Source: an uncultured Clostridium sp. (GTDB taxonomy: Bacteria; Bacillota; Clostridia; TANB77; CAG-508). Taken from it: a stretch of DNA of 57,715 bases. The translations under genes were made by a program, and so were the position numbers. The DNA lies in contig CANPHV010000001.1 of the NCBI GenBank assembly GCA_947573965.1, positions 1-57,715 on the forward strand, read 5' to 3'. This document shows positions 19,450 to 56,010 of this stretch, in pieces; position 1 is the first letter of the stretch; each line of letters starts with the position of its first letter. The notes beneath the pieces were generated by a model that was given only the letters and a program-made list of their open reading frames with translations, ran no database searches and was not told where the DNA came from.

Positions 19450-19773
19450 GTGCATTGGGGACGTTTCTTTTTGCACATTTTTGTGCATTTGGGACATATC
19501 TCTGAGGATTAAATAATACATTTCTTAAAGAATTATAAATTATCAAAAATGCTCGTTCAAGCTGATTTTCAGAGAAATTCTAAATTCATAATAGGGTCCC
19601 TTTCCGCGTCAAGCGCGAACACTTTCCCTATTATGAATTAAGAATTTCTAACTTCAATCACTTTCAATGCGCTTTTTTCAAATTTATAATTCTTTAGGAA
19701 ATTGTCTAATTTTAAGAATAGAGATGTGTCCCAAATGCACAAAAATGTGCAAAAAGAAACGTCCCCAATGCAC
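19450..19773. mobile_element. 324-bp foldback (MITE-like) element between response regulator and kinase genes
   Basis: 53-bp terminal inverted repeats 19450-19502 and 19721-19773 (52/53 identical); further matched inverted blocks inward (ATTTCYTAAAGAATTATAAATT, AGAAATTCTWAATTCATAATAGGG); no credible ORF. Confidence 0.7.
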
Positions 19774-19790
19774 AGAGAGGAGAAAAGAAA

Positions 19791-21791
19791 ATGGAAAAGG
19801 TAAGAAATTCAAGTGTTTTAAAAGTTTTATGTTATATTATGATACCAATTTTAGTAGCAATTTTTGGATTAAGTGTATTCCATCTAGCATTTTTAAATGA
19901 ATTTGGAAATAAAAAAGAAGAGGTAAAATACACACAAACAGAGAATTTTGCTAATAATTATTTGTATTTCTTTTTAGGAAAAGTTTATTATTGTGAGCCA
20001 GAGGTAAGGGATAAAAAGTTTAGAAAATTGGAAAATCAAGAAGGAGACTTGTATTGCTATTTTGATGAAGGAAGGAATTATGATAGTAGCCAAGTTGGAA
20101 ATTATATTAAGTACGTTATTGTAGAAAAAGCAACAGGAGACTTATTTACGAATATTAAAAGTGGTGATTACCAACAAGTAATGAGTGATATGCAAAATCA
20201 GAAGATATACTGGAATTTTGTAGATGGAAAAGTGGATACTAATTTAAGTTATATTAATCAAGATAATATTAAATATAGTTATTGTTTTAATGATACACAA
20301 GAAAGTAACGAACATGATTATGATATTTATAGCTTTTTTGATGAAGAAGAAGCCACAATAGCAAGTAATTTTCTATTCGATAAAACGGCCTATGATTTTA
20401 TGTTGCAACATAGGGATTTACCAATTTATGGGTGTATTTTTAGTGTGATAGTATTGCTAATGATTGCTTTTTATCTATTTTGTGCAATTGGCTATAAAAA
20501 AGGAGAAAGTGGAATTTGTTTAAATACCTTAGACAAGATACCTTATGAAATTATTTGTGCAATATGTGTGAATGTAATAGCCATAGCAGCTACTATTCTA
20601 GTTAGTATGACAAATGATATTTTTTCTTCTTATTATATAGTAATTGGTTTTTTCTTAATTTTTTATATTGTTGGGTATATTGCCTGTGCTGTATGGGGGA
20701 TTACAACCATAAAGAGAATTAAGGCAAAAACTTTTTGGAAAAGTTTTTTAACCTACAAGATTATGAATTGGTTAGTAAACAAAAAGATGAAGAAATATGT
20801 CAAAGAGTTTAGTCAAAAAACGTCAAGTGGACAAAAAATCTTCTGGTATTATTGGGGATTTGTTGTAATTAGTGTTGTGCTAGCTTGCTTACTAGGTAGT
20901 GCAACTGCAATTATTGCACTAATTCTATTCTGGCTATGGGTTTTTTATCGAATTAAAAAATATACGAGACAACAAGATGAAATAAAAGAAGCATTAGAAA
21001 AAATATATCAAGGAAATAATGAGATATATTTAAATGATAGCGAATTACAAGGCGTGCAAAAGGAAATGGCAGTTTACATTAATGATATTGCAGGTGGATT
21101 TTCCAATGCAATTGAGGAGAGTTTGAAGTCAGAAAGGTTAAAGACAGAGTTGATTACCAATGTGTCACATGATATCAAAACACCATTAACTTCTATCATT
21201 AACTATGTAGATTTATTGAAAAAAGAAGAACTACAAGACGAAAGAATAAGAGAATATGTTGAAATTTTAGATATGAAGTCACAAAGATTAAAAAAGCTAA
21301 CAGAAGATTTAGTAGAAGCTTCAAAGGTATCTTCTGGAAATGTGAAACTTACCATCGAAGAAATTAATTTAAAAGAATTAATTAACCAAAGTATCGGGGA
21401 ATTCAAAGACCGCTTTGAAGAAAAAGGGCTACAAATTGAAAGTAATATGCCAGAAGGAATAAAAGTAAAAGCCGATAATCGCTATTTATATCGAGTAATA
21501 GAAAATCTTTTTAGTAATATTACCAAATATGCACTAGAGAATTCAAGGGTTTATATTGATATTACAAAAGAGAAAAACAAAATTAGTATCAGTATGAAAA
21601 ATATTTCAAAGGAGAAACTAAATATTAGTAGTGATGAATTAATGCAACGTTTTGTCAGAGGGGATAAAGCAAGATACACCGAAGGAAGTGGCTTGGGATT
21701 ATCCATAGCTAAAAGCTTGACAGAATTACAAGGAGGAACGTTTGACATTTATATTGATGGTGATTTATTTAAGGTAGTAATTGAGTGGTAA
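19791..21791 (+). CDS. sensor histidine kinase with large N-terminal sensor and multi-TM region
   Basis: H-box ITNVSHDIKTPLTSI, N-box ENLFSNITKYA, G-box GSGLGLSIA. Confidence 0.9.
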   Translation: MEKVRNSSVLKVLCYIMIPILVAIFGLSVFHLAFLNEFGNKKEEVKYTQTENFANNYLYFFLGKVYYCEPEVRDKKFRKLENQEGDLYCYFDEGRNYDSSQVGNYIKYVIVEKATGDLFTNIKSGDYQQVMSDMQNQKIYWNFVDGKVDTNLSYINQDNIKYSYCFNDTQESNEHDYDIYSFFDEEEATIASNFLFDKTAYDFMLQHRDLPIYGCIFSVIVLLMIAFYLFCAIGYKKGESGICLNTLDKIPYEIICAICVNVIAIAATILVSMTNDIFSSYYIVIGFFLIFYIVGYIACAVWGITTIKRIKAKTFWKSFLTYKIMNWLVNKKMKKYVKEFSQKTSSGQKIFWYYWGFVVISVVLACLLGSATAIIALILFWLWVFYRIKKYTRQQDEIKEALEKIYQGNNEIYLNDSELQGVQKEMAVYINDIAGGFSNAIEESLKSERLKTELITNVSHDIKTPLTSIINYVDLLKKEELQDERIREYVEILDMKSQRLKKLTEDLVEASKVSSGNVKLTIEEINLKELINQSIGEFKDRFEEKGLQIESNMPEGIKVKADNRYLYRVIENLFSNITKYALENSRVYIDITKEKNKISISMKNISKEKLNISSDELMQRFVRGDKARYTEGSGLGLSIAKSLTELQGGTFDIYIDGDLFKVVIEW

Positions 21792-21857
21792 AAAAATAAG
21801 AAATATGATAGAATAAAAATTAAGAGAAAAACAAAAGCTAAAAATGGAGGAGAGAGA

Positions 21858-54214: not shown

Positions 54215-54285
54215 AATAAAAGAAATACAGCTTGTAATATGGATTACAAGCTTATTTTTAAAGAACAAAGGAAAGAAGAGAAACT

Positions 54286-55977
54286 ATGAAACTACAACAT
54301 TTGGCTGTAATATTTGTAATTATAATATTACCAATTACCTTATTATTAAATGGATATACTGATAGTCAAATAAAAACATTACGTTTACAGTTATCTTATG
54401 ATGACAAATTAGATAACGCTACTTATGATGCCCTAAAAGCCTTTCAATTAAATGCCATGAACAGTGACACATCAGACTTAGCCAATTCCAAAATACGAGA
54501 TATAGAAGCATCAGCTAATACTTTTTTTACTTCAATTGCGAGCAACTTTAATATGGCAGGCTATAACCAAGATATCTTAAAAGAATATGTACCAGCCTTA
54601 GTATATATTATGTATGATGGGTATTATATTTATTCACCATATACTAACACATTAGACGATCGTAATGAAAACATAATAGAAGGAGTAAATTTAGGAAGTG
54701 ATGCATCCATATTGCATCCAAATAATGAAGATGCTACGTATAAACAAGGTGAAAAAATTTCAGGATTAAAACCATTTATCTATTATAGTTGTAGATATCA
54801 ATATAATGGAAATGATTTTGTTATCACCTATGCCTTAGACAATTACATTACAATACAAGGAAAAATCAACAATGAATGGGTATATGATGCAGGTTATTTG
54901 TTAGACAATGTTACAAAATCAGGAGATAATTATAGTTATCGAGGAGTGCCAATCAATCAAAATGAGACCTTAGAAGAATATATTTTTAATCCAGAAAGTA
55001 AACAAATAAGAAAATATGAATATGTAAAAATTAATGGTGTAAAATATTATCACGATGTTTATGGACAAGATAGATGGTTTTCACTTTTAAATGGAGAAGT
55101 ATATTATCAAGATAATTTTAGTAATCGAACGACAACAGCAGCCAAAGAGTATTATAAGCAAGCATATGAATTTAAAGACAGAATTAAAAATTTGTATAAG
55201 TTAGAAGGACTAGAAAGCAAGCATGCTATTGACGAAAATGGAAACAAAACATTAGACACAGCTTTAGCCAATACCAAAGTATTTGATTTTGGAAGTATGG
55301 CAGGCACAAGCATAGAAGATCCAAATTCACAATTTAATCAACATCGATTAGCTGTTATTCGTCATGTTATCGAAAGAAATTTATCCATAGCAATTTCTAA
55401 CTATAACAACTATTCAGGAGGAATCACAACAGACTTTCAAATGCCCAAATTAAAAGAAGACGAATGGGAAAAAATCATTAACAATGTCTCCATCATAAGC
55501 TTTTTACAAGGATTAAACATTGGAGGGAAAATCTATAATGGTTATTCCATCATTACCAACGATAAAAACGAAGAATTAGTAAAAGAAGATTCTATCTATA
55601 TGGTAACACCAAATGACAATCAATACCATCGACCAAATGATAATGACTTAAAAAATCAAACTAGTAGCAACATTTATGGAGCCTTAAACGTAGACTTTGA
55701 AAGAAAATCTATCACAAGCAAAGAAGATGGGAAAATAAGATATTATATACCACAGCAAAATAATGGAGTATTAATTACAGGGTGTTATGGAAGTATAATA
55801 GGAGCAAGAAATATAACACAAACAGACAATCTTTATCAATATATGCAACAAATGGCAACTTCCAATCCATCCTTAGCCACTGCCTATTATACAGCATTAG
55901 GAAGAGAGCGATATAGTATGTATAAAACCAATAATGATCCAGATAAATTAAAAAAAGATTTTGGCGTTGACATATAA
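54286..55977 (+). CDS. 563-aa N-terminally anchored extracytoplasmic protein, last gene of the cluster
   Basis: MKLQHLAVIFVIIILPITLLL TM anchor; Y/N-rich globular remainder; no motif recognised. Confidence 0.6.
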   Translation: MKLQHLAVIFVIIILPITLLLNGYTDSQIKTLRLQLSYDDKLDNATYDALKAFQLNAMNSDTSDLANSKIRDIEASANTFFTSIASNFNMAGYNQDILKEYVPALVYIMYDGYYIYSPYTNTLDDRNENIIEGVNLGSDASILHPNNEDATYKQGEKISGLKPFIYYSCRYQYNGNDFVITYALDNYITIQGKINNEWVYDAGYLLDNVTKSGDNYSYRGVPINQNETLEEYIFNPESKQIRKYEYVKINGVKYYHDVYGQDRWFSLLNGEVYYQDNFSNRTTTAAKEYYKQAYEFKDRIKNLYKLEGLESKHAIDENGNKTLDTALANTKVFDFGSMAGTSIEDPNSQFNQHRLAVIRHVIERNLSIAISNYNNYSGGITTDFQMPKLKEDEWEKIINNVSIISFLQGLNIGGKIYNGYSIITNDKNEELVKEDSIYMVTPNDNQYHRPNDNDLKNQTSSNIYGALNVDFERKSITSKEDGKIRYYIPQQNNGVLITGCYGSIIGARNITQTDNLYQYMQQMATSNPSLATAYYTALGRERYSMYKTNNDPDKLKKDFGVDI

Positions 55978-56010
55978 TTGAGACACTAGGGACAGGTCTT
56001 TTTGTCTCAA
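55978..56010. repeat. GGGAC-core hairpin after the cluster
   Basis: 8-bp stem TTGAGACA/TGTCTCAA enclosing CTAGGGACAGGTCTTTT; no downstream T-run, so not a canonical terminator. Confidence 0.7.

Follow-up and report, generated by a model that had tools for sequence, protein, structure and literature searches.

Relation to described repeat systems

The closest described relatives of the elements reported here are the TIRtrons, in which TIRYT genes, resembling those for the REP-associated tyrosine transposases (RAYTs; REP, repetitive extragenic palindrome), are accompanied by long inverted repeats that share the motif GGGGWSAS (Di Nocera, De Gregorio & Rocco 2013, PMC3733652). Some TIRtrons have moderately abundant dispersed copies, and Firmicutes are not named in that account. 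Quentin et al. 2018 (PMC6006769) equated TIRYT with subclass 2.1 of TnpA-Y1 and with RAYT group 1 of Bertels, described its members as long proteins with a C-terminal helix-turn-helix (HTH) domain (Bac_DnaA_C / HTH_23 / HTH_28-like), and found no REP-like structures near the genes; Bertels et al. 2017 (PMC5581495) recorded group 1 in Clostridia, with flanking 16-mers that reach only about 12 occurrences. Within the literature searched, TIRYT is mentioned by these three papers only, and a search combining RAYT with clostridial taxa returned unrelated papers only. Here we describe hairpins with the motif GGGAC(A/G)G in their loop that are dispersed through the genome of an uncultured gut Clostridia lineage (assembly GCA_947573965.1, labelled G000), among them those of a 57,715-nt stretch of contig CANPHV010000001.1, hereafter the window, whose positions serve as coordinates. 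We consider it quite probable that these hairpins are non-autonomous REP/REPIN-like elements, with four HUH/Y1 enzymes of the same genome as their proposed mobilisers.

As in TIRtrons, Y1 genes in G000 are flanked by inverted repeats, the repeats are dispersed as singles, dimers and clusters, the proteins are long and have a Y---NP signature and a Ser motif (WSSY), and one genome has several divergent paralogues, to each of which a separate repeat belongs. The repeat motif, here GGGGAC(A/G)G, comes close to GGGGWSAS, and the C-terminal extension of the proteins may be HTH-like. Most families agree with GGGGWSAS at 6-7 of its 8 positions: GGGGACAG matches exactly, GGGGACGG and GGGGACGT deviate at positions 7-8, and families C and D often have TGGGACAG. 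The systems differ in that the earlier repeats were called terminal inverted repeats ('TIRs'), whereas the motif here, as in 75 hairpins of other phyla, sits in a hairpin loop whose stem covaries; in that our host belongs to a lineage unnamed in those papers; and in the presence of seven families at a density of about one copy per 7 kb.

Likeness extends to E. coli REP/BIME sequences with TnpA-REP (RayT/YafM) and to Pseudomonas REPIN-RAYT systems (REPtrons; PMC3333891, PMC3479197, PMC3116915, PMC8266576; structure 4ER8), which share with our elements short, high-copy extragenic palindromes, inverted doublets that probably form the mobile unit, a Y1 gene that is chromosomal, inherited vertically and enclosed by copies of its own repeat, and paralogue-specific repeat families, 4ER8 also being the best structural match to our proteins. 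In contrast to REPtrons, there is no 5' GT(A/G)G foot next to the stems, which are AT-rich, the conserved tag lies inside a 13-23 nt loop, and the protein is about 100 aa longer and scores below the NCBIfam RayT equivalog cut-off. With IS200/IS605 insertion sequences (IS608, ISDra2 TnpA) the system has in common the HUH/Y1 fold, the lack of target duplication and, as proposed here, subterminal single-strand hairpin recognition; it differs from them in that the genes are not multi-copy, occupy fixed syntenic loci without tnpB, have the same hairpin inverted on both sides rather than distinct left and right ends, and encode proteins of ~260 aa instead of a short TnpA of about 130-150 aa. Bacterial miniature inverted-repeat transposable elements (MITEs; RUP, Correia/NEMIS, bcr1, ERIC) are likewise small, intergenic and non-coding, have terminal inverted repeats and form long hairpins when transcribed, a description that fits the 324-bp family A element below. 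MITEs derive from DDE insertion sequences and generate target duplications, whereas here no target duplications are seen and the ends are REP-like and tied to Y1 genes. The system fits best in the TIRYT/subclass 2.1 branch and is neither a canonical GTAG-REP RAYT nor an IS200/IS605 system; it adds a Firmicute host to a kind of element that is already known, if little studied. What it contributes to the known family is the hairpin with its loop-tag architecture, the coexistence of seven families with four paralogues in a clostridial genome of small size, and the reuse of hot-spot sites.

Repeat families across the genome

G000 comprises 1,409,270 bp in 108 contigs (30.9% GC, 92.8% complete), and crude gene calls based on open reading frames (ORFs) class 85.8% of it as coding and 14% as non-coding. 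Its 43 occurrences of GGGGACGTT and 30 of CTGGGACAGG compare with ~1.6 and ~0.25 calculated from base composition, and a perfect stem of at least 6 bp closes 107 of 353 GGGAC[AG][GT] sites (30%) against 3-11% in eighteen permuted-core controls. The motif is thus far more frequent than chance predicts, and the outcome that a preliminary description of the window had named as refuting its reading was not observed. Families were defined by context listing of motif sites and fuzzy matching; the latter recovers 200 copies in seven families, and none in a shuffled genome. Each unit is a hairpin of 28-34 nt, with a family-specific stem of 5-9 bp and a 13-23 nt loop that contains GGGAC(A/G)G (loops bracketed below):

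Family A: TGTGCAA[TGGGGACGTTTCCTT]TTGCACA, then ATTTTTGTGCATTTGGGACACATC; 26 copies
Family B: CAGGGATT[AGGGGACGTTCCTTAA]AATCCCTG; 36 copies
Family C: TGGTCA[TTCTGGGACAGGCACCAAG]TGACCA; 42 copies
Family D: TGAGACAA[GAGGGACAGGTCTNNT]TTGTCTCA; 19 copies
Family E: TGTGCCAAA[GGGGACGGACCTT]TTTGGCACA; 39 copies
Family F: ATGTCG[TATTAGGGACGGTTCTTTTC]CGACAT, then a second CATTGGGACATC; 24 copies
Family G: TGTCC[CTTTCTGGGACAGTCCCTAAAGT]GGACA; 14 copies

Families A and F have a common bipartite architecture. Treated as single-stranded DNA, most consensus units form the expected hairpin, frequently with extra pairing by part of the loop. The intergenic enrichment for which the preliminary description asked a test is pronounced: 165 of the 200 copies (82%) are intergenic in a genome that is 14% non-coding, a further 13 lie at gene edges, and part of the 22 'coding' copies reflect spurious ORFs running through arrays. 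Copies are arranged as singles, tandems and inverted doublets, and the doublets keep a strict order by GGGAC strand, '+ then -' in 34 cases and '- then +' in 2. Singles have no sense/antisense bias, and the flanks of all families contain no conserved target motif beyond the unit itself.

Y1 genes and their association with the repeats

The preliminary description had envisaged a RAYT or TnpA(Y1) gene elsewhere in the genome, and four were found, with best matches to a REP-associated transposase model and to 4ER8. A search of G000 with PF01797 (Y1_Tnp) returned five matches, among them, over the cut-off, four intact genes of 253-272 aa, all outside the window:

C14:4997-5815, Y1 gene, PF01797
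C31:12219-12998, Y1 gene, PF01797
C25:98-907, Y1 gene, PF01797
C74:2048-2809, Y1 gene, PF01797

Inverted copies of a single family lie on both sides of three of these genes, family C around the C14 gene, family F around the C31 gene and family D around the C25 gene. The four paralogues are 26-47% identical in pairwise comparison, with no near-identical duplicates. Invariant in alignment A2 are the HUH residues (H60, H62), Y119, the Y---NP signature (YIHQNP / YIHVNP / YIHNNP) and, downstream of the Tyr, a W/F/Y-SSY Ser motif. The best NCBIfam match of all four proteins is 'REP-associated tyrosine transposase' (REP_Tyr_transpos, E 1e-16 to 1e-19), and the IS200 model gives E 2e-4 to 5e-3, below its cut-off. 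While a single-sequence search of the PDB found no match and a profile was required, a nine-member profile matched E. coli TnpA-REP (4ER8, E 8.8e-5), aligning the HUH motif, the catalytic Tyr (YIHQNP versus YIYINP) and the following WSSY/FSTF motif; ISDra2 TnpA reached only E 0.66 in the same search. In a Foldseek search, an AlphaFold model (pLDDT 83, pTM 0.66) came closest to 4ER8 (E 4.4e-6, TM 0.68, rmsd 2.5 Å), with the IS200, IS608 and ISDra2 transposases next. The model places residues 198-258 in an additional helical C-terminal domain, for which Pfam yields sub-threshold HTH_23 and HTH_7 matches only, in 3 of 9 members. Of the two kinds of HUH enzyme suggested for these hairpins in the preliminary description, the REP/RAYT type is supported, in its TIRYT branch and with three genes bracketed by GGGAC families, but the IS200/IS605 type is not.

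In five sister species the orthologue of the C14 gene (57-70% identity) has gap (88-97% identity) on one side and the same glycoside hydrolase gene on the other, and orthologues of the C31 gene adjoin radA in sister species; this synteny indicates that the Y1 genes, found at syntenic loci in six or more species, are fixed and vertically inherited. Both sets of orthologues evolve faster than their neighbour genes. Inverted repeats occur on both sides of the Y1 gene at 9 of 11 sister-species loci, where the surrounding GGGAC-loop hairpins have other stems (ATGGCAA, TGGTCAGT, GGTCAATTG, ATGTCC, ATGTCCAAAA). At the radA locus of G007 the orthologue of the C31 gene has A-like units on its flanks, and this, together with the architecture shared by families A and F, makes the C31 enzyme a candidate mobiliser of family A, one that we infer from these two features only.

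Several RAYT-like orthologues (in G002, G006, G010, G016, G005, G020 and G021) are full-length apart from one in-frame TGA/TAA, and these stops may reflect pseudogenes, sequencing errors or recoding. The fifth PF01797 match, C71:2-115 (minus strand), was rejected as an N-terminal fragment of a classical IS200-type TnpA (…YHIVFAPKYRR…); it lies at a contig end, adjoins tRNA genes and has no GGGAC hairpins nearby.

Covariation and co-occurrence in other genomes

The Y1 protein family is spread over many Bacillota and also occurs in Bacteroidota, Atribacterota, Treponema and others. Among loci from other taxa with both flanks available, an inverted repeat flanks the gene in 58 of 76, and GGGAC or GGGGWSAS is present in the repeats of 55 of these 58. 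From many phyla we took 75 distinct hairpins, selected only by the loop GGGACGGT[TC]C[TC], and in these the stem positions pair in 68.0% of cases versus 46.9 ± 1.5 when shuffled, with 224 double-sided changes versus 104 ± 9. Covariation scored 0.572 in the real stems and 0.233 in shuffled ones, none of 500 shuffles being as high, and fell to 0.15-0.20 in slid registers. The co-varying stems of the preliminary description are thus real between families and across taxa, but covariation is weak within family E (see below), on account of which we have dropped the claim of compensatory change inside one family.

A covariance model, a test already contemplated in the preliminary description, was trained only on these hairpins of other taxa and recovers 73 sites in G000, 62 of them intergenic, belonging to families E, A, F and B. 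Among 60 genomes of the genus, matches to this model occur in 37 of the 46 with the gene and in 2 of the 14 without it (Fisher 1.3e-5; medians 6.5 versus 0).

Elements of the window and occupancy of their sites

The following features were delimited in the window (a point denotes that no single strand applies; RBS, ribosome-binding site; UTR, untranslated region):

19450..19773, strand., composite foldback of 324 bp with 118-nt arms, between the response-regulator stop (19448) and the histidine-kinase RBS
19450-19502, strand +, family A end unit of the foldback, GTGCATT GGGGACGTTTCTTTT TGCAC ATTTTTGTGCATTTGGGACATATCTC
19721-19773, inverted relative to 19450-19502, second family A unit of the foldback
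29017..29050, strand +, hairpin, non-member: without GGGAC and matching none of the seven families
30418..30477, strand., decayed family B doublet, immediately upstream of the RBS of the gene at 30500
34080..34150, strand., family B inverted doublet, GGGATT[AGGGGACGTTCCTTAA]AATCCC, + at 34080-34107 and - at 34123-34150
39612..39712, strand., family C inverted doublet in the era 5' UTR, between a conserved -10 box (TATAAT, 39604-39609) and the RBS
40653..40730, strand -, family C tandem array of ~2.3 units, immediately 3' of the era stop codon
55979..56010, strand +, single family D hairpin, TTGAGACA[CTAGGGACAGGTCTTTT]TGTCTCAA, directly 3' of the stop of gene 54286-55977

The hairpin sequences quoted in the preliminary description are all present where it placed them. 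It had assigned six loci to one architecture; five do belong to the dispersed families, of which there are at least seven, but that at 29017 does not. The small hairpins it recognized at 19450, 34080 and 39632 exist, but as arms of larger palindromes rather than as separate units: what had been read as a mirrored pair at 19450/19747 is formed by the ends of one 324-bp foldback, and 34080/34123 constitute one doublet with 28-nt arms. The window contains 28 GGGAC/GTCCC sites, of which 14 are intergenic, and all 14 of these fall within the listed elements. Rfam gave no match at gathering thresholds; the only matches under E-value thresholds, to plant miRNA precursors, lie far below gathering and were discarded as artefacts of long hairpins.

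The family A foldback is present in 7 full copies in G000 that are 84-97% identical (five of them at 94-97%), with ~13 solo ends besides. In the decayed family B doublet the B unit is on the minus strand at 30449-30476 and its degenerate partner at ~30418-30444. The intact family B doublet at 34080-34150 has a 28-nt unit and 35-nt arms that agree at 94%, and both arms match the consensus exactly. At 34066-34082 a duplicated GGGATTAG of the family B unit provides the stop codon of the upstream gene 33646-34080, a gene that ends differently in sister species whose 34080 site is empty. The family C doublet upstream of era includes a perfect palindrome (39630-39696, 33-nt arms, 100%) with ~1.4 units of TTTGGGTCATTCTGGGACAGGCACAACGTGACCA per arm and, given its position between the conserved -10 box and the RBS, should belong to the era mRNA leader. 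With the array downstream, era (39728-40642) has inverted family C repeats on both sides, the same geometry as around Y1 genes. Family D, represented by the hairpin at 55979-56010, is the family that brackets the Y1 gene at C25:98-907.

Comparison with sister species reveals polymorphism at four sites of the window. Five species (G007, G041, G063, G047 and G022) have no element at the response-regulator/histidine-kinase (RR/HK) junction (window 19449-19790), and four have other GGGAC elements there: G059 has a foldback of ~300 bp, G050 one B-like unit, and both G001 and G014 carry nested palindromes. At the era 5' UTR site three species (G050, G041, G063) likewise have no element and two (G059, G007) carry other families; the 34080 site is empty in G007 and G063, and the 40653 site in G041, G007 and G063. 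No target duplication was found at the six family A copies with readable junctions (of the seven full copies), nor at the era-UTR junction, a pattern in keeping with an HUH/Y1 route and not with a DDE transposase.

Some of these sites also harbour unrelated sequence. The interior of the window foldback (19503-19720) is a separate, palindromic, MITE-like module of ~165 bp that occurs alone, without GGGAC ends, in G043, G059, G057 and G050, and in the centres of other hairpin doublets in G065 and in G000 (C30:7545-7740, C85:1265-1400, C75:7140-7317); from this nesting, doublet centres may be insertion targets. A second non-coding 'cargo' module (…caccttgtgtgtcgcaacc…ggttgctccaatcgcactcg…), which had no meaningful match in Rfam, lies inside an F doublet in G000 (C23:9400-9520) and, in G059 (C21:7480-7780), within the foldback with GGGAC ends that occupies the RR/HK site. 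At the RR/HK sites of G001 (C25:7790-7900) and G014 (C174:2150-2290) the outer ends GGGGACGTTC…GAACGTCCCC are common and the inner palindromes differ, which points to one hairpin doublet having inserted within another.

Alternative explanations

Several observations weigh against regarding the hairpins as REP/REPIN-like elements moved by the Y1 enzymes. The C74 gene has family E copies upstream only, and for families A, B and G, with 76 copies between them, no flanked Y1 gene was found in the 92.8%-complete assembly. All four proteins score 58.6-69 bits with the RayT equivalog NF047646, below its cut-off of 80. Within family E only 74.6% of positions are paired versus 72.1% when shuffled, and the 5' arm is often imperfect. 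The co-occurrence of hairpins and genes has a p-value that is overstated because the genus genomes are kin, and there is one clear exception in G051 (79% complete), with 55 hairpin matches and no RAYT-like gene detected. The strand bias considered in the preliminary description does exist for singles relative to the gene-majority strand, but it is weak (61:38, p = 0.03) and opposite in direction in family B; a strand test by GC skew (69:45, p about 0.03) is not decisive.

Against this background three other explanations deserve consideration. It is very unlikely that the hairpins are host regulatory structures (terminators, attenuators, mRNA stabilisers or sites for a regulator that binds RNA or DNA), conserved as such and with an incidental link to Y1. 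Many copies do separate a stop codon from the RBS that follows, or lie downstream of a -10 box and ahead of the RBS in a 5' UTR, and are therefore probably transcribed, and effects of E. coli REPs on mRNA are known from the literature; but the hairpins of the window are not called terminator-like, their loops being too large and without a T run after them, as the preliminary description, which held that these were not plain terminators, had implied. Intrinsic terminators (GC-rich stem, 3-8 nt loop, T run) were sought in 29000-41500, and none of the five terminator-like sites coincides with a GGGAC hairpin. Equally hard to reconcile with a regulatory origin are orthologous sites in sister species that are empty or hold an unrelated family, ~200 near-identical copies in seven families, the strict 34:2 order of doublets, the co-occurrence of hairpins with a Y1 gene, and singles without sense/antisense bias. 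We regard effects on host transcripts, exerted by hairpins in 5' UTRs and inside operons, as likely by-products.

Least probable of the three is that the repeats are TIR-type MITEs or insertion-sequence ends moved by a DDE transposase, or that the Y1 genes and the repeats around them form autonomous insertion sequences of the IS200/IS605 kind instead of fixed, domesticated genes; the searches for transposase genes that bear on this were aimed at the Y1 type. This idea draws on the MITE-like build of the 324-bp element with its 53-bp terminal inverted repeats, on the IS200-type TnpA fragment at C71:2-115, and on the unrelated ~165-bp MITE-like module nested in several doublets; it is contradicted by family A copies without target duplication and by Y1 genes that are only 26-47% identical to one another, lack near-identical duplicates, are syntenic in six or more species, and encode ~260-aa proteins with a C-terminal domain that match the IS200 model at E about 1e-3. 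Unlikely, too, but somewhat less so than either of these, is a role of the Y1 proteins as host enzymes that process or resolve hairpins (at stalled forks or in chromosome organisation) and thereby maintain repeats spread by recombination or slippage. Vertical inheritance as single-copy genes at each locus, the proximity of one locus to radA, the view of RAYTs as domesticated (PMC5581495, PMC8266576) and the tandem arrays of family C, which slippage could produce, would all suit such a role; however, ~200 unlinked intergenic sites and their independent occupation by different families require a transposition-like step, and a gene flanked by its own repeat is the expected trace of a mobilising enzyme.

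Proposed mechanism

For the REP/REPIN-like elements that we favour, we propose that a unit on single-stranded DNA would fold into a stem of 5-9 bp presenting GGGAC(A/G)G in a loop of 13-23 nt. The mobilisers would be the four chromosomal, vertically inherited HUH/Y1 enzymes, which are RAYT-like and of the TIRYT / TnpA-Y1 subclass 2.1 type, and whose helical C-terminal domain is predicted to be HTH-like. Each enzyme would bind its own cognate hairpin, the shared loop motif serving as a common recognition or cleavage element and the specificity of paralogues coming from the stem and the 3' part of the loop. A single strand might then be cut and rejoined by the enzyme via a phosphotyrosine intermediate, and units, mostly as inverted doublets of fixed order, would be excised and copied to new intergenic sites without target duplication. 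We infer this scheme, including binding, the cleavage site, the single-strand route and the paralogue that would move families A, B and G, from association, polymorphism, covariation and homology.

We also lean slightly towards a broader proposition, namely that the GGGAC(R)G-loop hairpin would serve the entire subclass 2.1/TIRYT branch across phyla (Bacillota, Bacteroidota, Atribacterota and others) as its general element for single-strand recognition, and that doublets would act as reusable landing pads. The latter idea arises because different families independently occupy one intergenic site and MITE-like modules nest in doublet centres. If true, a general loop hairpin would add a third class of REP, a 'loop-tagged' one, to those marked by GTAG and CGTC.

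Implications

To our knowledge, work on REP-RAYT systems has been confined almost entirely to Proteobacteria, and we know of no DNA substrate assigned to the largest RAYT-like branch (subclass 2.1 / group 1) beyond a brief description of 'TIRs'. G000 offers a compact natural experiment in this respect, with four paralogous enzymes and seven hairpin families that have one loop motif and differing stems, and in such a genome a loop-versus-stem recognition code would be directly testable with oligonucleotides. The repeats also matter for the annotation of metagenome-assembled genomes of gut Clostridia, where they lie in 5' UTRs and operons, supply stop codons, and probably break assemblies.

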